In this document: piece after piece, positions 15,326-58,668 of the stretch
Layout of the letters: each line of letters begins with the position of its first letter
How positions within the stretch are numbered: the first letter of the stretch is position 1
IMG/VR virus record: IMGVR_UViG_3300031088_000735
From: a virus
Lineage: Duplodnaviria > Heunggongvirae > Uroviricota > Caudoviricetes
Reading direction: 5' to 3' (one strand)
DNA: 64,000 nucleotides
Notes under the pieces: generated by a model
Seen by the model: only the letters and a program-made list of their open reading frames with translations
What the model was told of the DNA's origin: nothing
The model's database searches: none
Translations under genes and position numbers: made by a program

Positions 15326-16093
15326 ATGGATTCCGACAATCGCGTTTCTTTTTATACAGACTTAACCAAACATCATGAGTTTCTATCCCGTTTGAAAGAA
15401 ATCATCAATCATCCAGAAAGCAACATTGTGGATTGTTATTTCGCTCAGTCTACTTCCAATCGTTTTTCCCTTTTTATTGATACCAAGAATCCACGTTATT
15501 CTTTTAAAAGTATTGTCTTCGATTTTACGAATCCTTTCTGGCGGGAGTCTTGGAACGAATCTGACAGCACCTATTTAGAGGATGGCTTATCTCAGGTAGA
15601 CATTGACAGTCTTAAACATTTTCTGGCTGATTTTACATTCAAAAACTCCTATGAAGGACTTTTCTTTGCTTCTGTATTCTTTGGCGAAACGTTCAACCCC
15701 AAGAAAGCATCCACGATTTATTTAAAATTCACACCTGATGTTGAAAATAATAAGTACACTGTTGATGGTAAACATTGTGAACTTCAGTTGGCAGTCACTT
15801 CACGGGAAAATTTGATTTATGAATTGAAACGTGAACGCAATAAAAAACATGCCAATCTGTATAAATGTAACACTTACAGTTTTCAACATCATCGAGAAAT
15901 GAAATACTGCATTGACCAGATTAATAAAGTGTCGGGACACGTCCCTAAACCAGACTGGTATGTAGTTGAGTTTTACCATGACCTTGAACACCTTGGCAGC
16001 TACATCAAAACTGTTTACAAAGTCGTTGATGAACAACTTGTTGAAGTTGATATTGAAGAATTTGTAAAACAAAACCAACCGGCTATTACTTAA
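15326..16093 (+). CDS. hypothetical protein
   Basis: 255-aa ORF with GAGGTG SD. Confidence 0.8.
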   Translation: MDSDNRVSFYTDLTKHHEFLSRLKEIINHPESNIVDCYFAQSTSNRFSLFIDTKNPRYSFKSIVFDFTNPFWRESWNESDSTYLEDGLSQVDIDSLKHFLADFTFKNSYEGLFFASVFFGETFNPKKASTIYLKFTPDVENNKYTVDGKHCELQLAVTSRENLIYELKRERNKKHANLYKCNTYSFQHHREMKYCIDQINKVSGHVPKPDWYVVEFYHDLEHLGSYIKTVYKVVDEQLVEVDIEEFVKQNQPAIT

Positions 16094-23551: not shown

Positions 23552-24952
23552 ATGCTTAAACATCAATTCAAATTTTCAGAAGTCACTGCAGTCCGTGAAG
23601 TTCCAAAAGCTGTTGAAGTCATCGTCAGCACTTATAAGTCCACCGAAGATGGCCCTATTGTTCATGAGTCTATTCCAGTTGCTATCCATCCATTCCTTGA
23701 TGATGAGAATTTCAGTGCTCAACATGGGGCTGTTCTTTATGTCATGCTCCATGTCAAAGAAAATGATAAAACCGTTGCTAAAAAAGTAACTTCAGCTATT
23801 GCTAGCCTGCCAAAGCATATCACCAAAGTTTCGGTACTCGCTGATGTGGGTTGCCTGAAACAGTTCACGGCTGGTTTGCTGGTGGCTACTGCTAATCAAT
23901 GGTCTGCTAAGTCCGAACAGAAAACCAAAGAGCCAAAAGATGTCTCTGTCATTTATGAAGGTGATGAACCGCTGGGTGAATTGAACGATCAGATTGCGTT
24001 GGGTAAAGCTCTGGCTTTTGCTCAGGCTACCAAAATTCGTCTTATCGAAATGCCTTCCAACTATCTCACGCCATCAGCTTTGCTTGAAGAGGCTAAAGCC
24101 ATCAGGGATTCTAGCCAAAAGGTTACTCTTTCCTATGTCAGTGGTAAAGACTTGGAAGAAGAAGGCTATGGCTCGCTTTACGCTGTTTCCAAAGGCTCTG
24201 TTGAAGAAGGTCATTTGATCACTCTTGAATATAACGGTGGTGAGAAAGGCGAAGCCCCTATTGTGCTGATTGGCAAAGGTTTGACTTTCGACTCAGGTGG
24301 TATTTCTATCAAGCCTTCCCGTGGCATGGGACGTATGAAAGGTGACATGGGTGGTGCAGCTACCGTTCTGGCTTCCTTGATTTATGCTATTGAAACAGAT
24401 GTGAAGAAAAACATTGTGGCTATCATTGCTACGTGTGAAAACATGCCAGACGCTGCTGCTCTGAAACCGGGTGATGTGATTACCGCCAAGAATGGTAAAA
24501 CCATCGAAGTAGAAGACACTGACGCAGAAGGTCGTTTGGTCTTGGCTGACGCTCTTTGCCATGCTCAAACCTTCAACGGTGCGGTTACCATTGACTTTGC
24601 TACCCTAACAGGTGCAGTTATCGCGGCTATCGGTCATGTTCACACTGGTTTGTTTACTGAAAACGATGAATTGGCTGAAACCATCCTTGCGGCTGGTAAA
24701 GCTTCTGGTGATACAGCGTGGCGTTTGCCGTTGGGTGATGAGTATAATCACTTCCTAGAAAGCTCAGTGGCTGACCTCAACAACCTTTGCTTGGGTCAAG
24801 GTGCGGGTGCAACCAATGGTGCTATCTTCTTGCGTGAGTTCGCTCCAAAAGAAAACTGGGTTCACCTTGATATTGCTGGCACCAGTGATCACAACGGCGG
24901 TACCGGACGCCCAGTTGGTTTGATGTCGCATTTCTTGGACACATTCCGTTAA
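23552..24952 (+). CDS. pepA: M17 family leucyl aminopeptidase
   Basis: IVLIGKGLTFDSGGISIKP, MKGDMGGAA, ATCENMP, DTDAEGRLVLADAL, WVHLDIAGT; metal-binding K/D/D/D/E and catalytic K/R intact. Confidence 0.95.
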   Translation: MLKHQFKFSEVTAVREVPKAVEVIVSTYKSTEDGPIVHESIPVAIHPFLDDENFSAQHGAVLYVMLHVKENDKTVAKKVTSAIASLPKHITKVSVLADVGCLKQFTAGLLVATANQWSAKSEQKTKEPKDVSVIYEGDEPLGELNDQIALGKALAFAQATKIRLIEMPSNYLTPSALLEEAKAIRDSSQKVTLSYVSGKDLEEEGYGSLYAVSKGSVEEGHLITLEYNGGEKGEAPIVLIGKGLTFDSGGISIKPSRGMGRMKGDMGGAATVLASLIYAIETDVKKNIVAIIATCENMPDAAALKPGDVITAKNGKTIEVEDTDAEGRLVLADALCHAQTFNGAVTIDFATLTGAVIAAIGHVHTGLFTENDELAETILAAGKASGDTAWRLPLGDEYNHFLESSVADLNNLCLGQGAGATNGAIFLREFAPKENWVHLDIAGTSDHNGGTGRPVGLMSHFLDTFR

Positions 24953-36798: not shown

Positions 36799-36904
36799 TC
36801 TTCATTTTGTTTTCAAAAAGGTCACTTCGGTAGCCTTTTTTTATTGCTTCATTTCTCATTTTTTGATAGAATAGCGGTATATATAATAGAACGGATTAAT
36901 TACC

Positions 36905-37303: not shown

Positions 37304-37424
37304 GGTCATCACAAGTTAGGGGAAACCATAACTTAATGGTTGTAAAAAAGATGTGGATTATTTTAAGATTCTCATAATCTGTATCGAGGGGCGTAGGAGA
37401 AATTTTACGCTTTGTCTGTTCCAC

Positions 37425-37497
37425 AGAGGTGTATATCAGTCGGTAGATAATCTCTCTAGCAGAGAGAAGGTCGCGGGTTCAAGTCCCGTCACTGATG
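37425..37497 (+). tRNA. tRNA-like gene, anticodon AGC (Ala), irregular acceptor stem
   Basis: D-stem TATC/GATA with GG in loop; anticodon stem TCTCT/AGAGA, loop CT-AGC-AG; T-arm GCGGG-TTCAAGT-CCCGT; acceptor has two purine mismatches; no encoded CCA. Confidence 0.7.
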
Positions 37498-37525
37498 TGG
37501 ATTTAGGCCGAGAGGTCAGGACGTA

Positions 37526-37599
37526 TACGGTGTATATCAGCGGCCTAGATAATTTCTCTAATCGAGAAAAGGACGTAGGTTCAAATCCTACCACTGTAT
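37526..37599 (+). tRNA. tRNA-like gene, anticodon AAT (Ile), unusual C37
   Basis: Acceptor TACGGTG/CACTGTA; D-stem TATC/GATA; anticodon stem TTTCT/AGAAA, loop CT-AAT-CG; T-arm GTAGG-TTCAAAT-CCTAC; no encoded CCA. Confidence 0.75.
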
Positions 37600-37614
37600 T
37601 GCAAGAACCAAAAA

Positions 37615-50470: not shown

Positions 50471-50547
50471 CCTCTTCGGAGGTTTTTTCTTTAAGGTTCT
50501 CAAATAATTTGTGTCTTCAAAATATTTTTTTAAAATTAAAAAAAAGC

Positions 50548-50576
50548 TTTACACCTTTGCTACTTTTCGCTATACT
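50548..50576 (+). promoter_or_regulatory. promoter of micro-gene copy 1
   Basis: TTTACA-17-TATACT. Confidence 0.75.
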
Positions 50577-50611
50577 TCACCTACACAAACAAAAGGTAAC
50601 GGAGAAACACA

Positions 50612-50752
50612 ATGTCCCAAGTAGCACTGACCAAAGAGCAAGAAATCGACGCAGCTTACGCCCAGATGAAAGCTCAGGAACAAAAGGATAAAGATTCGGC
50701 TTGGAAGCAAGCTGACAAAGAACTGGGGCATCAGCAGAAGTCCTCGGTTTAA
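50612..50752 (+). CDS. 46-aa micro-protein, copy 1 (not in the ORF track)
   Basis: GGAG SD; MSQVALTKEQEIDAAYAQMKAQEQKDKDSAWKQADKELGHQQKSSV. Confidence 0.85.
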   Translation: MSQVALTKEQEIDAAYAQMKAQEQKDKDSAWKQADKELGHQQKSSV

Positions 50753-50846
50753 CACTGACCACAAAGAAAGCGGCCTTCGGGTCGCTTTTTTTATTTCTTT
50801 ATTTTATTTTATTGATATACTGTAATTAATTAACATTCAAGTACAT

Positions 50847-51659
50847 ATGAAACTAATTCATAATAAAATAACAAAATCTACTGAAAATATAACTAGAATA
50901 AACTATGAACATGAATTAACTACACTTGAAAAATATGTAGAAACAACCGCCGAATTATCGAATGTAGAAAATAAACAAGAGTTATTTTTTTCTTGGTTAA
51001 TCTATTCTTTATCTTTTTTAGGTGTTTTGTCCATTCTTGGTATTTTCTTTTCTTTTATTGACGGTAATGAATATGTTTCATTAGAGAGCACGCTTTTAGT
51101 CTATATTTCATTATGTATATTTGCTTACACATCTAAAGACTTTTTATATCTTCTGTTGGTTTTAAATATTATGAAATCTAATCTTAATATGCGAGTAAAG
51201 CTATCAAATATTCAAGAGCATAAACTGGTTTCTGGTGGTTATTTATATTTGGTAAAAGTTCTTGTTGTTATTTTAAGTATTCTTTTATTATTTAGTTTTG
51301 CCGCATATTTTACTAACTATCTTAAACATCCATTATTAACATCATTGTTAATTTATTTATTATTATTGACTACTGTTAATGTCGTTCGCAAAAAACTTCA
51401 TATAGCTGTTCACATATCATTCTTTATTTTTACACTTTTGTTATGTCTTATTAATCTATTTGTATTAGCTGATATTAGACATGAAGAACGATTGAACTCT
51501 TATGAGGAACCTCTGTATACAGATAAAGAAATCGAACTTGAAAAAGAAGCTGACGTACACGAAATAATTGACGATTTCATGAGTAAACTAATTATTAATG
51601 AACTAACGAAAGATAAAGAAGAACATCAATCTTTAATAAATGAACATATAAACAAATAA
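50847..51659 (+). CDS. multi-TM membrane protein, tandem paralog 1
   Basis: Several hydrophobic helices; EHKLVSG..VKV...HP..SLLIYLLL shared with 51884. Confidence 0.8.
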   Translation: MKLIHNKITKSTENITRINYEHELTTLEKYVETTAELSNVENKQELFFSWLIYSLSFLGVLSILGIFFSFIDGNEYVSLESTLLVYISLCIFAYTSKDFLYLLLVLNIMKSNLNMRVKLSNIQEHKLVSGGYLYLVKVLVVILSILLLFSFAAYFTNYLKHPLLTSLLIYLLLLTTVNVVRKKLHIAVHISFFIFTLLLCLINLFVLADIRHEERLNSYEEPLYTDKEIELEKEADVHEIIDDFMSKLIINELTKDKEEHQSLINEHINK

Positions 51660-51883
51660 AGAGCAGACATTCTAAAAAAGACTTCATGGTCTTTTTTATT
51701 TATTAAAATATACTTTTTTATTTTTTTTGATATACTGTAATTAACATTCAAGTATATATGAAAATTCGCAATGAAAATATCATTAATAAACTCAAAAAGA
51801 GTCAAAAAAAACCATACACATATGAAAAACATGATGACGTAAAGTTAAAGAAATAAGAAGAATTAAAAGCTGATTTATGTCCT

Positions 51884-52546
51884 ATGGAAGACCCATCTGA
51901 TATGATCATTACTTGGCTTTTGGTTTCATTTGGTATTATAGGTGGTATTTTCTTTTTAGATGTTTTCTTATCTTTTTTTACTGGGCGAACCGAATTTAAT
52001 ATTGATTTTTCTACAGTCCCCTATCTTATTTCAGCTATTTTTATTTTAGCTGCCAGTGTGTTTTTCATGTTCTATTTGAATTCAAAAATAACACAATCAG
52101 ATTTATCACTTGATGAAAAAATAGACAGACTTGAAAATAATAAACTTGTTTCTGGATTTCATTTAGTGTTTGTTAAAGTTATGATATTTAATTTGTTTAT
52201 TTTATTGTTATATAGTTTTTATTGTTATTTCGACCCTGAAATAACACATCCATTTGGAAATTCTTTTATTATTTACTTATTGCTTATGATATTTATCAAT
52301 ATCGTTAAAAAGAATGTTTCTTTATTCTATTACATTACCTTTGCGATTATCAGTTGCATATTGTATCTTTTTAATTATATTGCATTTGGTGATATAGCTT
52401 ATGCAGAAGAAGACAACGAAGATGATACACATCAAACTCAATCTGTTGATCCTGATGAAAATCTTAACTTTGACGAATACAGAAATAACGAAAAACCAGA
52501 TTATATTCCAACACCTGAACCTTTTGAAAATTTCAAAAAGAAATAA
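51884..52546 (+). CDS. multi-TM membrane protein, tandem paralog 2 (5' end disrupted; original start probably 51758)
   Basis: ENNKLVSG..VKV...HPFGNSFIIYLLL; the duplicated promoter/start region leads to ATG 51758, which is followed by in-frame stops. Confidence 0.7.
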   Translation: MEDPSDMIITWLLVSFGIIGGIFFLDVFLSFFTGRTEFNIDFSTVPYLISAIFILAASVFFMFYLNSKITQSDLSLDEKIDRLENNKLVSGFHLVFVKVMIFNLFILLLYSFYCYFDPEITHPFGNSFIIYLLLMIFINIVKKNVSLFYYITFAIISCILYLFNYIAFGDIAYAEEDNEDDTHQTQSVDPDENLNFDEYRNNEKPDYIPTPEPFENFKKK

Positions 52547-52622
52547 AAAAGACCTTCAGGTCTTTTTTCTTGCCTAAAATACCAATGTTTGCTATAATAG
52601 ACCTCTAATTCAGGAGGTTTCT

Positions 52623-53357
52623 ATGATCATTGACCCGATTTACAAAAGTGAATACTCCGACAGTCTTTTGAAGATGTCGTACACCTTTGCAATGGAAGGC
52701 CATGCTTCTGTCATCTCTTTGCGTGAGGGTGATTTGGTTGCCTTCATGAAGAAATACACATCAGATATTGATGTAGACGCTTACAAAACGGCATCACTGA
52801 AAAAGATGGCTAACGATCAGCGTTATCATCTGCAGGTGAAAGTTCGCTATAATCTGGACAAAGTTATTGAACCAGTCTTCTGTGTTGGTCTTTACGACAT
52901 GTCTTTTTCGGACGATGATTTTTATGCCGTTGATGGATTTAAAGATTTTGTCGAAGGCGACAATTTTCCAGCTCTCTTTGAAGTAGCCGAAAAGATTGTC
53001 GATACGTTGTATACAGATGGAGCTTTGTATATCACTCGTAAGATTGATTTCAAAGAGCGTTTCTGGTCTTTTGAGCAAGGGGCTGTTTGTGAAACTGAAT
53101 TTCATTCGTTGGTTTTGAAGGATGCTGCAATTCAGGCGATTGCCCAACATATTCGTCAGGATGTTGAACTCAACGGTGCTGGCACGTTAGCGAAAGCTGA
53201 AAAATCGGCTAACACGTTTTACATGCCTATGTCGTTTGAGAGCTTCAAAGAACAATGGCCGGTTGATTTAAAGCTTTTAAAATCAAGCGATTTGAGTTAT
53301 AATACGTTCAGAAACTTCCTTCAAAAATACAATCTTAACAAGGTAAAAGAGGTCTAA
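52623..53357 (+). CDS. hypothetical protein, tandem paralog 1
   Basis: AGGAGG SD; DLVAFMKKYTSDID...VRYNLD..IEP shared with the next gene. Confidence 0.8.
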   Translation: MIIDPIYKSEYSDSLLKMSYTFAMEGHASVISLREGDLVAFMKKYTSDIDVDAYKTASLKKMANDQRYHLQVKVRYNLDKVIEPVFCVGLYDMSFSDDDFYAVDGFKDFVEGDNFPALFEVAEKIVDTLYTDGALYITRKIDFKERFWSFEQGAVCETEFHSLVLKDAAIQAIAQHIRQDVELNGAGTLAKAEKSANTFYMPMSFESFKEQWPVDLKLLKSSDLSYNTFRNFLQKYNLNKVKEV

Positions 53358-53358
53358 T

Positions 53359-54099
53359 ATGCACATTGGAAAACAACTTCAAGTTCCTTATGTGGTTGAA
53401 ATTGCAGAACTCAGTTATTCGATTTCTTTGAAAAACGGCTGTTCTGTTAAAATCAGCGGGCCTGATCTCATTAACTTCATGGAGCGTTATGTTCCTGATA
53501 TTGATATGACACCTTACGCAGATTTTGCGACTCAGTATCGTAAACGCAGTCAGGCGATTGATTTGCTCTACGCTATTCGCTATGTGCTTGACCCCATTAC
53601 CCAGCCATATCTCTATTCTCAGATGTATGAACAGTCTTTTGATATGGATGATGATAGTAGCGACCGTCCACGTTATGAAGATCTGAAAGCCACTGACATG
53701 GATAATCTGTTGGGAGCACTGGCAGCTTTCTACAATAGCGTGAAAACAGGCGAGAAAGAAAAGTTTAAGCCCATTGAACAACTCTCTGGCGATGGGGCTT
53801 GCAAATGGTCGTTTAATGGTAACCTAATGACGTTGGCTGATGACGAGTCTGTTATTACCTTGACTGAAACTTCGGTTGCTTACCTGACCAACCATTTCCG
53901 CAATGACTTCATTGTGAATGGTCAAGAAAACCTGCAGGCCAGTAGTAATGGCAAAATAGATTTTGATAAGTATATTTCACTGGAATATTTCCTTGAAAAT
54001 TTTGAACAGGATATTGCCAAATTTAAAGCTGATGGCATGACCTACGAAGGGTTTGTTGACTTCCTTCTGGCTTACAAAATTTGCGAAAAATACGAATAA
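53359..54099 (+). CDS. hypothetical protein, tandem paralog 2
   Basis: GAGG SD; DLINFMERYVPDID...IRYVLD.ITQP. Confidence 0.8.
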   Translation: MHIGKQLQVPYVVEIAELSYSISLKNGCSVKISGPDLINFMERYVPDIDMTPYADFATQYRKRSQAIDLLYAIRYVLDPITQPYLYSQMYEQSFDMDDDSSDRPRYEDLKATDMDNLLGALAAFYNSVKTGEKEKFKPIEQLSGDGACKWSFNGNLMTLADDESVITLTETSVAYLTNHFRNDFIVNGQENLQASSNGKIDFDKYISLEYFLENFEQDIAKFKADGMTYEGFVDFLLAYKICEKYE

Positions 54100-54104
54100 A
54101 ACGC

Positions 54105-54133
54105 TTTACATAAAACCAGTTTTTAGCTATACT
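54105..54133 (+). promoter_or_regulatory. promoter of micro-gene copy 2
   Basis: TTTACA-17-TATACT. Confidence 0.75.
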
Positions 54134-54167
54134 AATCTCACACAAACAGAAGCAATGGAGAAACACC

Positions 54168-54302
54168 ATGACCCAAGTAGCACTGACCAAAGAGCAAGAA
54201 ATCGAAGCCGCTTACGCTCAGATGAAGGCTCAGGAACAAAAAGACAAGAACGCCGCGTGGGAACGTGCGGAATCCGACCAGAACAAAGGCAAAGATCTGT
54301 AA
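54168..54302 (+). CDS. 44-aa micro-protein, copy 2
   Basis: GGAG SD; MTQVALTKEQEIEAAYAQMKAQEQKDKNAAWERAESDQNKGKDL. Confidence 0.85.
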   Translation: MTQVALTKEQEIEAAYAQMKAQEQKDKNAAWERAESDQNKGKDL

Positions 54303-54427
54303 TAGGTCAAGCTAACGAACAAAAAGCCCTTCACGGGGCTTTTTTTGTTTCTATGGTTTCTTAAAACTACCTTTTTGTGTTTTTTTGTGGTATAATCACC
54401 TTTCAATTTTAATAGAGTATTTGAACA

Positions 54428-55084
54428 ATGCCAACAAAGACTACATTTATCGTTTTGGATAATGAAGACCATCTAGATGATTTTGACAGTCATTCGCTTG
54501 ATTTCAACCATGAAAGTGATCTGGATAAAGTGGCTGGTGTTATTTTCCGTGACACTCGTAAATCAATGTCTTACCTTCCGGTTTTTTATTATGATCGTGA
54601 AGGCTACATCACAGGTTTTGAAGGCTGGGGTTGTGGTGGACACGAAGTTGTTGAAGTCATTGACGTTCCGTCAGATTTGGACTTGTCCACAACTCTGGTT
54701 ACTATCGAACCACCAAAATCGAAATTGCCGTATTATCGTTATAGTGCGAGAGCAAGCCAAGAAGGCGGTCAAGGAGGTCTTGAAGTCAAGATTTACACTA
54801 AGCAATCTAATTTGCAGCCTGTCATTGTGGTTAAAGCCATTGTCACACAACTGCTTAAAAAAGATGTTTCGCCTATTTTGGATTTGAAGCTTGCTGTTTA
54901 TCAAGATTTCAAAGATGGGCGGTTAAATCAGCCTAATGACCCTTATTATTCAGTGATGGAAAAAGAAGCTGTTTCACTGGTTAATGCAATTGACCAGAAG
55001 TTTCAAGATGGCGATCATAATCCAACCTCGCTGATTATGTTGGTTCATCATTTCTTGGTGAGTGGTATTGCTGGTGCTGCTTAA
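54428..55084 (+). CDS. hypothetical protein
   Basis: TGGTATAAT promoter; 218 aa. Confidence 0.8.
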   Translation: MPTKTTFIVLDNEDHLDDFDSHSLDFNHESDLDKVAGVIFRDTRKSMSYLPVFYYDREGYITGFEGWGCGGHEVVEVIDVPSDLDLSTTLVTIEPPKSKLPYYRYSARASQEGGQGGLEVKIYTKQSNLQPVIVVKAIVTQLLKKDVSPILDLKLAVYQDFKDGRLNQPNDPYYSVMEKEAVSLVNAIDQKFQDGDHNPTSLIMLVHHFLVSGIAGAA

Positions 55085-55182
55085 CAAATTTTTTTATAAA
55101 ATTGGCCTTCGGGCCTTTTTTTTGCTTGTTGCAATTATATTTTTTGTTGATAAACTAACGATAATCAACATTTAATTTAATT

Positions 55183-55365
55183 ATGAAAACAGATAATATT
55201 AAAACAGATAAAACCACAATTGTCGCTATAACCGGCCTTATTCTTTTTGTATTAGGTTTTATAGCCTTCTTTCTTTTAAGTGATTTTAATCACACTGGTG
55301 TTTTAGATAATTGTAAGCGTAATAATGACAATTATTCCATGAATTGTAGACAATCTGATTTATAA
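55183..55365 (+). CDS. small single-TM protein with two Cys
   Basis: 60 aa; same architecture as the next gene. Confidence 0.6.
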   Translation: MKTDNIKTDKTTIVAITGLILFVLGFIAFFLLSDFNHTGVLDNCKRNNDNYSMNCRQSDL

Positions 55366-55427
55366 TCAAATTTTGCAATTAAATTTTTGTTTGTTATCCT
55401 TGAAGATGACCAACCTTTATTTCTATT

Positions 55428-55610
55428 ATGAAACAAAAAACAGCTATCATTATCACTACAACCAGCTTCATTGCTTTTGTCATAGCTTATGGTGCTATAT
55501 ATTTTTCTGGATCATATGACCAAATTGGTGATTATGAGGATTGTCGCTATCCTAGCTATTCAAGATATTCGCACAATTCAGAAACGTCATTTTGTCCAAA
55601 CAAATATTAA
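55428..55610 (+). CDS. small single-TM protein with two Cys
   Basis: 60 aa. Confidence 0.6.
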   Translation: MKQKTAIIITTTSFIAFVIAYGAIYFSGSYDQIGDYEDCRYPSYSRYSHNSETSFCPNKY

Positions 55611-55672
55611 ATTGAATTGCTTTTTTTATCATTTTTTTGTATAATTCCTTATCTTATTAAAGGTAAATACCT

Positions 55673-56575
55673 ATGCCTACTCCAACATTACGTTTCACTG
55701 GATTCAAAGATGCCAATGGTCTGGATATCCATGAGGGTGACTATCTCGTTCTCAAACTCAGTGACCTACCCGAAGAAGAAATCAAACAACGCACGTTGAA
55801 TGTCATGATGGACGCCTATGATATTCAATACATGCAAGCCTACATCAAGCCGACTGGTCAACTTCGCTATGACCTCGACGTTATTTATGTCGATGGTAAT
55901 AACCGGGCATTAACCGAAGTCGAATATGCGTTCATTTATGAGCAGCATGACATGAGCAAAGAAGATTTTTGGACGGAATTTGCAACACATTCCAAGCTTG
56001 ATGAAATTGAAACCAGCCCAAGCTTCCATTATTTCTCTATGTTAAACGGTATGGTAAAAACTAAATTGTGGTCAAAATCACAACCGCTGGTTAATCGTGA
56101 CCATATTCAGGCAATGGATTTGCAACTGGTTGACAATCAACAAAATCCAATCACTCAGGGGCAACATTTCTTGTTTACTGTTCCTGATGATGTTTTCAAT
56201 GCGGAACACAACACTTTTTATGGTGGAAATCTTGGTAAAGACATGCGAAAAATCGCCTGCCGTCATTTTTTGGTGTATGTTATTCCCACTGAATTTTTGG
56301 CCGTTCGTTTGATGACGTGTTTTCTTAAAGATGACATGACACCGTTTACCATTGCAGAAGATGAACAAATTTTTGAACATGACGCTGAGTATTTTGCTCA
56401 TGATGGCATTGATCTGAATACTGTTGATAAGCAAGAAGTATCCTTATCTTATGTAGAAGACGCCTTTACCTTTGTTCGTTATCTTACGGGTAAACGTTGG
56501 TTAGTTTACGAACCTAATCCAGCGATTGATTTATCCAAACTCAAAGTTGGCTACAAACACTTTTTCTCAGCTTAA
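55673..56575 (+). CDS. YopX-like domain protein (apparently two degenerate units)
   Basis: RFTGFKDANGLDIHEGDYL matches the YopX pattern (Q-F/Y-T-G-L-K-D-K-N-G-x-E-I-Y-E-G-D); second weak unit LVDNQQNPITQGQHFL. Confidence 0.6.
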   Translation: MPTPTLRFTGFKDANGLDIHEGDYLVLKLSDLPEEEIKQRTLNVMMDAYDIQYMQAYIKPTGQLRYDLDVIYVDGNNRALTEVEYAFIYEQHDMSKEDFWTEFATHSKLDEIETSPSFHYFSMLNGMVKTKLWSKSQPLVNRDHIQAMDLQLVDNQQNPITQGQHFLFTVPDDVFNAEHNTFYGGNLGKDMRKIACRHFLVYVIPTEFLAVRLMTCFLKDDMTPFTIAEDEQIFEHDAEYFAHDGIDLNTVDKQEVSLSYVEDAFTFVRYLTGKRWLVYEPNPAIDLSKLKVGYKHFFSA

Positions 56576-56589
56576 TAGGAGATTATTAA

Positions 56590-56853
56590 ATGAAACTGCC
56601 ATTTCTACAAACTTATTCCAAAAGTCTTACCAGAATTGATGATGTGTTAGTTGCACTTCATCATATTGCTCATACAGCACCTGTTTTTACAGACCATATT
56701 AATGTTTCTGTCAACAGGCCATTAGAGATTAAAGCTTTGAAACAAGTCACTCTTATCGACGGTTCAGTTCATTATGTGGCTGCTAAATTATTTAATAGTT
56801 TGATCGATGTTGAAACGCCTTACGGACTTCAAGCAGATGATAATGGGGAATAA
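56590..56853 (+). CDS. small hypothetical protein
   Basis: AGGAG SD. Confidence 0.7.
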   Translation: MKLPFLQTYSKSLTRIDDVLVALHHIAHTAPVFTDHINVSVNRPLEIKALKQVTLIDGSVHYVAAKLFNSLIDVETPYGLQADDNGE

Positions 56854-56892
56854 AAAAACCACCTGAGAAGGTGGTTTTCTGTTTCTGGTGGA

Positions 56893-57078
56893 TTACTCTC
56901 TACCTGAAAAATCCGTCTGCAAATACGCATCTTCTGAACGTGCGTCTTGCATTTTCTTTTCAACGATGTATTTCAATTCATCCAGCAAACCAGCAGCTTT
57001 GAATTTTTCAAAGACTTCGTTACATTTTTCGACATCTTCAACCTTGTCTTGCCAATGATACAATTCTTCTATTTCCAT
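56893..57078 (-). CDS. small acidic hypothetical protein
   Basis: GGAG SD before ATG 57078. Confidence 0.65.
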   Translation of the reverse strand: MEIEELYHWQDKVEDVEKCNEVFEKFKAAGLLDELKYIVEKKMQDARSEDAYLQTDFSGRE

Positions 57079-57238
57079 GTCAAACACTCCACCTATGAAA
57101 TTTCTTGTATGTATTATACTTTATTTTAAATTTTTATTCAATTAAAAAAATACATTTATTGCGTTTACGTTGAAATAGGTTGTCTTGAAAGCTGTTTTTT
57201 GCTATAATGGCTTCATTAAATATCTACGGAAGCCTACC

Positions 57239-57667
57239 ATGACAACTGCACAAGAACACGTTTGGACGAATGCCGACATTGAAACGATGTTGAGTGGTTT
57301 TAAAGCGTCTTTGGAAATGATGGATGGCTATTACAGCACTAGCGAAGCTGGTCAAGACCTTCGTGACCTTTACAACAGCTTCAAGCAACGCCGTGAAGAC
57401 TTGAAACCTGTCGTAGTCTCTACTTTACACAATGCCAAATGCAAAATCTGCGATAAAGAGTTCGTCCGCTCTGGTCATGGTAAATTGTTGAGTGCAACTG
57501 AGCAAAACTCAGCCGTTATGAGCCACATCATGAACGTTCATAAAATTCATGATTATGACGCTCGCAAGAAGAATTTGCAAAAAGCCAGTGTTACTCGTGT
57601 AACATATGCCAACCGTAATGACTGCAATCGTGGAATTGTCCAAAGCGAACGCAAAGACAAAAAATAA
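57239..57667 (+). CDS. protein with a C2H2-like zinc finger
   Basis: CKICDKEF...HIMNVH. Confidence 0.65.
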   Translation: MTTAQEHVWTNADIETMLSGFKASLEMMDGYYSTSEAGQDLRDLYNSFKQRREDLKPVVVSTLHNAKCKICDKEFVRSGHGKLLSATEQNSAVMSHIMNVHKIHDYDARKKNLQKASVTRVTYANRNDCNRGIVQSERKDKK

Positions 57668-57699
57668 TCCACGTTTTCAATTAAAAAAGGCCACAGACA

Positions 57700-58113
57700 A
57701 TGGAAGTTAGACTTCAAGAAAACATCGAATTCAACACGGCGGATGATTTTCAAAAGGTTATCACCAACTTTGAAACCTTGGCGAGCATGTTAGGTAAGCG
57801 TATGGCTCCCACCACTCTGTTTATGATACCTTTCTATGCCATCAACGATGAAATCATTTTCGCCACTACCATCATGGGCGAACGTGAATATATCCGTCAT
57901 CAGCGTGGCAATCGCAACTTCAAAAACAAAGAAGTCATCGATTGCTATGATATGGTCAATGGCTTGCTGAAAAACGAACTCGATACCATTATCAAGAACC
58001 TTTCAAAGCATGAACTGGTGGCTTACGCCTTGGATATTAGCACCGACATGATTACTGGTGTGGTCAAGTTGCACCGTGATGGAACTCCTTATGTAACTGT
58101 AAAAACAGTGTAA
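57700..58113 (+). CDS. hypothetical protein
   Basis: 137 aa, downstream in the same unit. Confidence 0.75.
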   Translation: MEVRLQENIEFNTADDFQKVITNFETLASMLGKRMAPTTLFMIPFYAINDEIIFATTIMGEREYIRHQRGNRNFKNKEVIDCYDMVNGLLKNELDTIIKNLSKHELVAYALDISTDMITGVVKLHRDGTPYVTVKTV

Positions 58114-58127
58114 TTCAATAAAAAAGC

Positions 58128-58156
58128 TTTACACAAAAACACAATTTTGCTATAAT
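58128..58156 (+). promoter_or_regulatory. promoter of micro-gene copy 3
   Basis: TTTACA-17-TATAAT. Confidence 0.75.
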
Positions 58157-58193
58157 CATCCTACACAAACAAACGAAGTAACGGAGAAATACC

Positions 58194-58328
58194 ATGACCC
58201 AAGTAACCCTCACCAAAGAGCAAGAAATCGAAGCCGCCTACGCTCAGATGAAGGCTCAGGAACAAAAAGACAAGAATGCTGCATGGGAGCGTGCAGAAAC
58301 TGACCAGAACAAAGGCAAGCCTGAATAA
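58194..58328 (+). CDS. 44-aa micro-protein, copy 3
   Basis: GGAG SD; MTQVTLTKEQEIEAAYAQMKAQEQKDKNAAWERAETDQNKGKPE. Confidence 0.85.
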   Translation: MTQVTLTKEQEIEAAYAQMKAQEQKDKNAAWERAETDQNKGKPE

Positions 58329-58348: not shown

Positions 58349-58528
58349 ATGATTTTACACTGGGTTGGTTTTGCACTCTTATTAGTTATCGGATTTGCCT
58401 TGTTCATAGGTGGTCTTTTAAACTTGTTGGGATGTGGTGATCGAACCGGCCCAGAATTTAAAGTCAGCAACATTGTTCAGATTTTAATCGGCATTGCCAT
58501 CTTCATCGGTGCATTTTTCTTAAAATAA
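58349..58528 (+). CDS. 59-aa two-TM membrane peptide (not in the ORF track)
   Basis: AGGAG SD; two hydrophobic helices. Confidence 0.65.
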   Translation: MILHWVGFALLLVIGFALFIGGLLNLLGCGDRTGPEFKVSNIVQILIGIAIFIGAFFLK

Positions 58529-58668
58529 TCCGTTGAAAACCATCAGAAAAAAGCCCTTTTCGGGGCTTTTTTTATTTCTTCATCTTTTTTAACGATGTCT
58601 TTCAATTTTGAGTTTACAAAAATTGTGGTTTCTGTTAAAATCATGGCTCTCTTAAAGGTATCTAAACT

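Follow-up and report, generated by a model that had tools for sequence, protein, structure and literature searches.

Promoter-early stem-loop (PeSL) cassettes are known from T4-type phages (Arbiol et al. 2010, PMC2839356; Comeau et al. 2014, PMC4122927). Phage genomes also contain more than two million small genes, most of them without a known function, and the small early host-directed proteins of lytic phages have been reviewed as a class (PMC11323111). The locus described here is a cassette present in three copies (A, B and C) in a 64-kb stretch of DNA (35% GC) from the tailed-phage record IMGVR_UViG_3300031088_000735. This whole stretch is henceforth called the window, and coordinates refer to it unless another source is named. 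In each copy a promoter, a leader and a Shine-Dalgarno (SD) sequence precede a short open reading frame (ORF), which is a real gene for a peptide of 44 or 46 amino acids (aa). The DNA of relatives used for comparison comprises loci L001-L007, the 290-kb IMG/VR record G001 and metagenome loci L012-L020.

Anatomy of the cassettes and sequence signs of expression

A preliminary description, made from the sequence alone, had reported near-identical ORFs at 50612, 54168 and 58194, 3.5-4 kb apart, each preceded by TTTACA, a 17-nt spacer, TATA(C/A)T, a CACAAAC leader and GGAG. The three paralogous ORFs are indeed present, and all the upstream elements could be located exactly. The parts of the cassettes are as follows:

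50534-50576, plus strand: promoter of copy A, with an A-tract, the -35 box at 50548-50553, a 17-nt spacer and the -10 box TATACT at 50571-50576
50584-50611, plus strand: leader of copy A, with CACAAACA at the likely +1 region and GGAG at 50601-50604
50612-50752, plus strand: ORF of copy A, 46 aa, with an A-type tail (...HQQKSSV); the protein is identical in L006
50763-50799, plus strand: intrinsic terminator of copy A, with a 13-bp stem, a TTCG loop and a T-run
54091-54133, plus strand: promoter of copy B, with the -35 box at 54105-54110 and the -10 box TATACT at 54128-54133
54141-54167, plus strand: leader of copy B, with CACAAACA and GGAG at 54157-54160
54168-54302, plus strand: ORF of copy B, 44 aa, with a B-type tail (...NKGKDL)
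54321-54350, plus strand: intrinsic terminator of copy B; next comes a new promoter of extended -10 type, TGGTATAAT, for a 218-aa gene
58114-58156, plus strand: promoter of copy C, with the -35 box at 58128-58133 and a TG-extended -10 box TATAAT at 58151-58156, matching 11 of 12 consensus positions
58164-58193, plus strand: leader of copy C, with CACAAACA and GGAG at 58183-58186
58194-58328, plus strand: ORF of copy C, 44 aa, with a B-type tail (...KGKPE)
58349-58528, plus strand: 59-aa ORF 3' of copy C, which has its own GGAG and encodes two hydrophobic segments; L001 and L012 keep the arrangement
58546-58580, plus strand: intrinsic terminator of the copy C unit; the next promoter, TTTACA-17-TAAAAT, lies at 58613

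When each copy was compared with the window by tblastn, only the other two were retrieved (E 1e-14 to 1e-23), all remaining matches having E ≥ 0.3. A repeat finder detected three registered families with a shared spacing of 3556 and 4026 nt, made of a 60-nt promoter, a 144-nt ORF (74-90% identity) and a 52-nt terminator. The whole repeat spans about 250 nt and has the protein-coding gene at its centre. The micro-gene had been presented as missed by the ORF track; public gene callers, however, do annotate the ORFs, under the label "hypothetical protein".

The three promoters have in common the -35 box TTTACA and the 17-nt spacer, and the -10 box is TATACT in A and B and TATAAT in C. They are of the sigma-70 type, match 10-11 of the 12 consensus positions and have A-tracts upstream (at 50534, 54091 and 58114); the stop codon of the preceding 246-aa gene falls inside the A-rich tract of copy B. 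The pattern GCTTTACA-N17-TATAnT is found nowhere else in the 64-kb window. In all three copies CACAAACA begins 8 nt past the -10 box, and the gap between GGAG and ATG is 7 nt. Terminators stand directly 3' of A and B; in C the terminator is found only past the 59-aa ORF, which is predicted to be co-transcribed with copy C because no terminator separates them. The distance between terminator and -35 box is about 190-220 nt in A and B, whereas it reaches about 420 nt in C.

Within the window, CACAAACA after a -10 box is also restricted to the three cassettes. The leaders of relatives grade into CCCATCAAAAC-like forms, and a search of G001 for TATAAT-N3-8-CCAYMMAAAC yielded 4 matches (one of them at a peptide copy), compared with 0 in the reversed control. 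On the minus strand of G001, at 15777-15796, 36858-36877 and 169637-169656, TATAAT is followed by CCCATCAAAAC or GCCATCAAAAC at the +1 region. These three extra promoters suggest that an initial-transcript motif is conserved across the clade, and the leader of the cassette is probably a variant of this clade-wide promoter and initial-transcript motif rather than a private sequence.

Other traits of the transcript were examined as signs of heavy expression. The first ~78 nt of the predicted mRNA have minimum free energies of -1.9 to -6.3 kcal/mol, and the centroid structures of A and C are unpaired or nearly so. The GC content at third codon positions (GC3) of the three ORFs is 0.52-0.57, compared with 0.29 ± 0.11 in 45-codon windows of the 25 other genes of the window. 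Codons ACC, ATC, TAC, GAC, AAC, CTG and CGT are preferred, and GAA, AAA, GCT and GTA are kept. That choice is the classical optimal set of gamma-proteobacteria. The codon shift thus has the look of an optimal-codon pattern and not of a plain GC shift. Altogether, the cassette shows every sequence hallmark of strong expression by the host RNA polymerase. The proposal of high-dose, immediate expression made in the preliminary description therefore stands in part: its strong-expression side agrees with the promoter, the optimal SD spacing, the unstructured leader and the codons, while early timing is an analogy. A high dose of the peptide is likewise an inference from sequence.

Selection on the coding sequence and exchange among copies

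Differences among the copies are concentrated at third codon positions. Over the first 31 codons, differences at positions 1, 2 and 3 number 3/0/10 between A and B, 4/0/12 between A and C, and 1/0/6 between B and C. The ratio of nonsynonymous to synonymous divergence (dN/dS) is 0.062 for A-B, 0.048 for A-C and 0.028 for B-C (about 0.02-0.08 overall), and it ranges from 0 to 0.14 when close positional orthologues of the window and L006 are compared. Among 12 copies from relatives, dN is about 0 in close orthologues and dN/dS is below 1 in all comparisons, with values of about 0.02-0.2 among the closer copies; comparisons with the most divergent ones give values as high as about 0.64. The third-position bias and the low dN/dS therefore indicate selection on the protein and rule out a purely DNA or RNA repeat. 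These substitution patterns identify the ORF as a translated protein gene under strong purifying selection. In this respect the preliminary description, which had favored a peptide gene over a mere DNA/RNA repeat, is borne out, and none of the ratios between copies comes near 1.

Some observations would also suit a cassette that is mainly a DNA or RNA element (a PeSL-like recombination or regulatory cassette, or a small RNA) in which the ORF is incidental. The copies recombine by gene conversion, as described below; indels lie at cassette borders, as in the case of the acetyltransferase gene after the C operon of L001; and the synonymous sites of codons 3-13 are nearly invariant in 15 copies from five genomes. 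However, the third-position bias and dN/dS values of 0.02-0.1 require selection on the protein, and recombination is more readily explained as a by-product of the repeats. Beyond the terminator no structure stands out, and no Rfam family reaches its threshold: a search at E ≤ 1 gave five matches, all far under the gathering scores and mostly on terminators. The frozen synonymous sites of codons 3-13 fit selection on the initiation region. We thus consider it highly improbable that the cassette is mainly a nucleic acid element.

The succession of promoter, short ORF and terminator recalls leader peptides of the trpL or TnaC type, in which translation of the ORF would control read-through of the terminator. 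The fact that no good sigma-70 promoter was seen between the terminator of copy A and the membrane-protein genes that follow it agrees with such an attenuator. On the other hand, purifying selection is not limited to a few regulatory codons but spans the whole predicted helix, in A and B the stem of the terminator begins its GC core 17-24 nt past the stop codon, a second ORF precedes the terminator of copy C, and folding gives no alternative antiterminator. New promoters are found, furthermore, past the terminators of B, C and the copies of relatives. Attenuation is hence an explanation to which we attach very little weight.

The last ~14 residues of the peptide had been described as variable. 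The tails do differ between A and B/C, but the difference is one between two conserved classes and not free variation. The A-type tail (...ADKEL-x-HQQ-x-x-SV) is found in all sub-clades, and the B-type tail reads ...AE-x-x-QNKGK(D/E)L or a close variant. Comparison of the window with L012 reveals an identical A-type tail despite differing cores, and the tails of copies B and C differ solely in their final two residues. This distribution indicates that the tails are two conserved isoforms rather than a hypervariable specificity region. The suggestion that a variable tail tunes target specificity is accordingly not supported, as each class is conserved across distant relatives.

The copies evolve in concert. 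In every copy of the window, A14 and M19 are found together with a codon 2 that ends in C (ACC in B and C, TCC in A) and with CAG as codon 18; the corresponding states in all three copies of L012 are Q14, L19, ACT and CAA. Two synonymous states are thus common to all three copies. When quartets were made with pairs of copies from the window and L012, the sites that group copies by genome outnumbered those that group them by orthologue (13:1 for B/C, 5:3 for A/B and 7:2 for A/C). Counts were made on codons 1-35, and gap-free upstream counts were left out on account of register shifts. In a maximum likelihood tree of the 105-nt core, same-genome pairs are formed by L012 B and C (100/99), the two copies of L018 (93/84) and two copies of G001 (88/81). 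Genome labels require 5 changes on this tree, compared with a mean of 8.5 after shuffling, and none of 200 shuffles gave a number as low. As B and C occupy syntenic positions in the window and L012, the clustering of syntenic copies by genome leads to gene conversion as the simplest reading; exchange would be strongest between B and C and limited to the 5' core in the case of A.

A family confined to one clade of huge phages

A word search retrieved seven clusters of the peptide, and a profile (hidden Markov model) search of 1.84 billion proteins retrieved nine representative clusters. Altogether there are about 16 clusters, and every member is a stand-alone protein of 36-71 aa that contains no further domain. 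Fused or longer forms were not found among them, the sole candidate being a 91-aa upstream-start artefact of copy C on a 678-kb contig. Searches of other collections can be summarized as follows:

(i). No relative was detected in 185,579 prokaryote species genomes, and in the INPHARED phage collection nothing matched the region, the peptide, the 300-aa gene or the 621-aa virion protein, either as DNA or as protein.

(ii). Pfam gave no match to the peptide at E ≤ 1, and PHROGs gave weak matches only, to phrog_15485 (function unknown; best E 0.0045).

(iii). A profile search of the PDB found nothing under E 0.6, and the ESM Atlas gave sub-threshold matches or none.

Judged by these searches, the peptide family is confined to a single clade of huge phages. 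Among the small phage proteins of unknown function it constitutes a new family, restricted to this clade.

Every contig or record that is long enough carries 2-3 copies: three in a 56-kb syntenic contig, L012 and G001, and two in L006, L016 and L018 (in tandem). The anatomy of the cassette is conserved as well. Nearly all copies of relatives have the A-tract, a (G/T)CTTTACA-like -35 box, a TATAnT -10 box, a CACA(A/T)AAACA-like leader and an SD sequence, together with a terminator that is commonly followed by a TGnTATAAT promoter. Exceptions are the G001 copy in L010, which does not show the -35/A-tract pattern, and the first tandem copy of L018, which has no terminator of its own.

The gene order of the window is common to L006, L001, L012 and the 56-kb contig. 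It reads A, (0-2 membrane-protein genes), 244 aa, 246 aa, B, 218 aa, ..., 300 aa, ..., 160 aa, (137 aa), C, 59 aa. In G001, positional counterparts of A and B lie 136 kb apart. Peptides of the window and G001 are 43-70% identical, compared with 23-48% for neighbouring proteins; for L012 the respective values are 71-85% and 50-76%. As the identity of the peptides is above that of their neighbours, the micro-gene is at least as constrained as its surroundings.

These data bear on the possibility that the peptide is an anti-defence inhibitor, acting on restriction-modification, CRISPR, toxin-antitoxin or abortive infection systems with the tail setting its specificity. Its small size, the early-type promoters and a location in a plastic, ORFan-rich region are in agreement with that role, and an ESM feature search pointed weakly (0.79) to the C-terminal domain of the MazE antitoxin, which is to be taken as a lead only. 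Anti-defence genes, however, tend to evolve fast and to have a patchy distribution. All longer relatives examined retain 2-3 copies of the peptide, its conservation exceeds that of its neighbours, its tails form two conserved classes without hypervariability, and no known family is matched in Pfam, PHROGs or the PDB. Retention of several copies and conservation would fit a conserved target better than a fast-evolving anti-defence gene. We thus regard an anti-defence function as decidedly unlikely.

The structure predicted by AlphaFold2 from a 19-row alignment is a single helix that spans residues 8-42 (mean pLDDT 81). T7 (at the N-cap position), E11, A15, Q18 and W31 are invariant; E9, Q10, I12 and K27 are nearly so, and conservation is also good at Y16, Q22 and A30. 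Projected on a helical wheel, the conserved residues make two adjacent stripes that cover about half of the circumference. The net charge of the peptide is about -1 to -2. Prediction of a homodimer (two copies, alignment A3) gave a score of 0.02, compared with a mark of 0.42, which speaks neither for nor against a dimer. Two further candidates were considered and rejected: PDZ or KDEL-like C-termini, which are inconsistent across members, and an Arbitrium AimP-type pro-peptide, given a polar, helical N-terminus that lacks a signal sequence and neighbours devoid of any TPR or AimR domain.

One feature of the region between copies A and B concerns a possible partner:

52623-54099, plus strand: genes of 244 and 246 aa, a pair of paralogues about 23% identical

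A gene of this family adjoins a peptide copy in L006, L012, L014, G001 and L016, in the latter twice (peptide-245 aa, repeated). Both genes of the pair have GC3 values of 0.41-0.42, well over the mean of the window. The AlphaFold model of the 244-aa protein (pLDDT 90.5) is a mixed helical bundle; Foldseek comparison with the PDB (best E 0.14) and a search of the ESM Atlas (TM ≤ 0.32) gave no convincing match, and the best hit of the VIA wide search (Z 6.3) lies inside helical-bundle noise. Its sequence relatives are close ones only, and the family is clade-restricted.

The above association could mean that the partner of the peptide is phage-internal, the peptide being a stoichiometric subunit or chaperone-like cofactor of the 244/246-aa proteins, the 59-aa membrane protein or the multi-transmembrane (multi-TM) proteins encoded after A. 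Besides adjacency, which holds for the window and the five relatives mentioned (twice in L016), the raised GC3 is shared by the 244/246 genes, and in three genomes the 59-aa TM ORF forms a bicistronic unit with copy C. In contrast, the peptide and 244/246 genes are set apart by terminators and separate promoters, the tandem copies of L018 have no 244/246 neighbour, and synteny among related phages is expected from descent. The 244/246-aa family may belong outside the peptide system, and a phage-internal partner seems unlikely to us.

Indels between relatives sit at cassette borders, and 0, 1 or 2 membrane-protein genes follow copy A. In L001-L004 a GNAT acetyltransferase gene (4134-4598 of L001, minus strand) lies between the 59-aa gene and a DUF6900 gene; the insertion is absent at the same site of the window, and the indel falls exactly on the terminator-promoter junction. 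A ~37-nt motif that ends in TTGATATACTGTAATTA is present in the window at 50792-50828 and 51707-51743, upstream of paralogous multi-TM genes (50847, 51884). The motif lacks a good sigma-70 -35 box and may represent a second, phage-specific promoter class. Two adjacent 60-aa ORFs (55183-55365 and 55428-55610) each encode a hydrophobic anchor at the N-terminus and a tail that contains Cys; L006 keeps both, and one is absent from L001.

Other observations concern the genomes at large. Relatives L012, L013 and L017 are located on contigs Ga0308157_10000028 and Ga0247725_1000001, of 677,834 and 1,539,155 bases, and coordinates place the 290-kb IMG/VR "provirus" G001 internally, at ~268-558 kb of the 1.54-Mb contig. 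The window carries a match to a virion-protein PHROG. It also contains a full-length M17 leucyl aminopeptidase gene (23552-24952, Pfam E 9e-107) and, at 37424-37600, adjacent tRNA genes that ARAGORN assigns to tRNA-Ala(AGC) and tRNA-Ile(AAT). Anticodons with A34 are unusual for bacteria and phages.

Proposed mode of action and comparison with known systems

We propose that the cassettes are autonomous early units, driven by the host RNA polymerase, that supply an abundant single-helix microprotein acting by stoichiometric binding. Chances for and against this proposal appear to us evenly balanced. Its steps would be the following:

(i). Each copy would work as a self-contained transcription unit with promoter, short CA-rich leader, SD sequence, ORF and intrinsic terminator. 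By analogy with the host-RNA-polymerase promoters of other lytic phages, the units would probably fire on DNA entry.

(ii). The three units together might yield large amounts of a ~5-kDa protein made of one long alpha-helix. Several copies would raise the dose, and gene conversion would keep the cores alike in each genome as two tail isoforms are maintained.

(iii). The protein would act stoichiometrically, with the conserved half of its circumference laid on a conserved partner. The binding surface would be formed by the N-cap residue T7 with E11, I12, A15, Y16, Q18, Q22, K27, A30, W31 and A34. A host machine would be the probable partner, a phage protein a less probable one.

A more specific version holds that the peptide is a core, dose-critical takeover factor of this clade of huge phages, which would dock from the first minutes on a conserved host machine such as the transcription, translation or RNA-decay apparatus. 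We put it forward tentatively. In the general scheme of steps (i)-(iii), binding as the mode of action and a target in the host are both suppositions, and several observations weigh against it. The helix is very polar and its hydrophobic moment is weak, and the structural model makes a binding surface plausible but not evident. Conservation and codon bias would fit equally well an abundant phage-internal component. In addition, sigma-70-like promoters are apparently widespread in the genome, and further promoters with the +1 motif exist in G001; the term "early" is therefore an analogy and not a finding.

Whatever its mode of action, there is unusual internal evidence that the product matters, namely selection, retention of multiple copies across deep divergence, concerted evolution and codon bias. 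The family is thus a well-founded candidate for bench work, from a clade that has no cultured member in the collections searched. Its layout of multiple, separately promoted and gene-converted copies, combined with extreme codon bias, makes it a better-than-average target, albeit one that is mechanistically unsurprising so far. If the target is a host machine, the peptide would offer a handle on how huge phages take over cells, and a takeover factor of this sort would represent a new class of phage-host interface.

PeSLs are the closest known counterpart of the cassette as a DNA arrangement. Resemblances include repeated strong promoters of sigma-70 consensus with an AT-rich tract upstream of the -35 box (PMC2839356, PMC4122927), the stop codon of the upstream gene inside that tract, an SD sequence and start codon at the 3' end, efficient stem-loop terminators, and a plastic, ORFan-rich location. 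In both cases the repeats recombine, and indels between close relatives lie at repeat borders. However, a PeSL is a short intergenic composite that is non-coding and has its stem-loop within or beside the promoter, whereas the present repeat is ~250 nt long, has a selected coding gene at its centre and carries its terminator after an ORF of 135-141 nt. The T4-type capsid protein Gp23 (PF07068) had no match in G001, in a search whose control genomes were unsuited to a phage family; a T4 Y00F-like domain is present in L001. The cassette indicates that PeSL-like promoter and terminator repeats can bear a selected gene and not regulatory DNA alone.

As for the product, the class of small early host-directed proteins includes T7 Gp2 and Gp0.4, T4 AsiA and Stp, and lambda Kil. 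The peptide resembles them, by description only, in its length of under 100 aa, its host-type promoters, its location in an ORFan-rich early region and the expectation of binding over catalysis. It differs in having no homology to known families (Pfam, PHROGs and PDB profile searches) and in being encoded by three dispersed, separately promoted and gene-converted copies.

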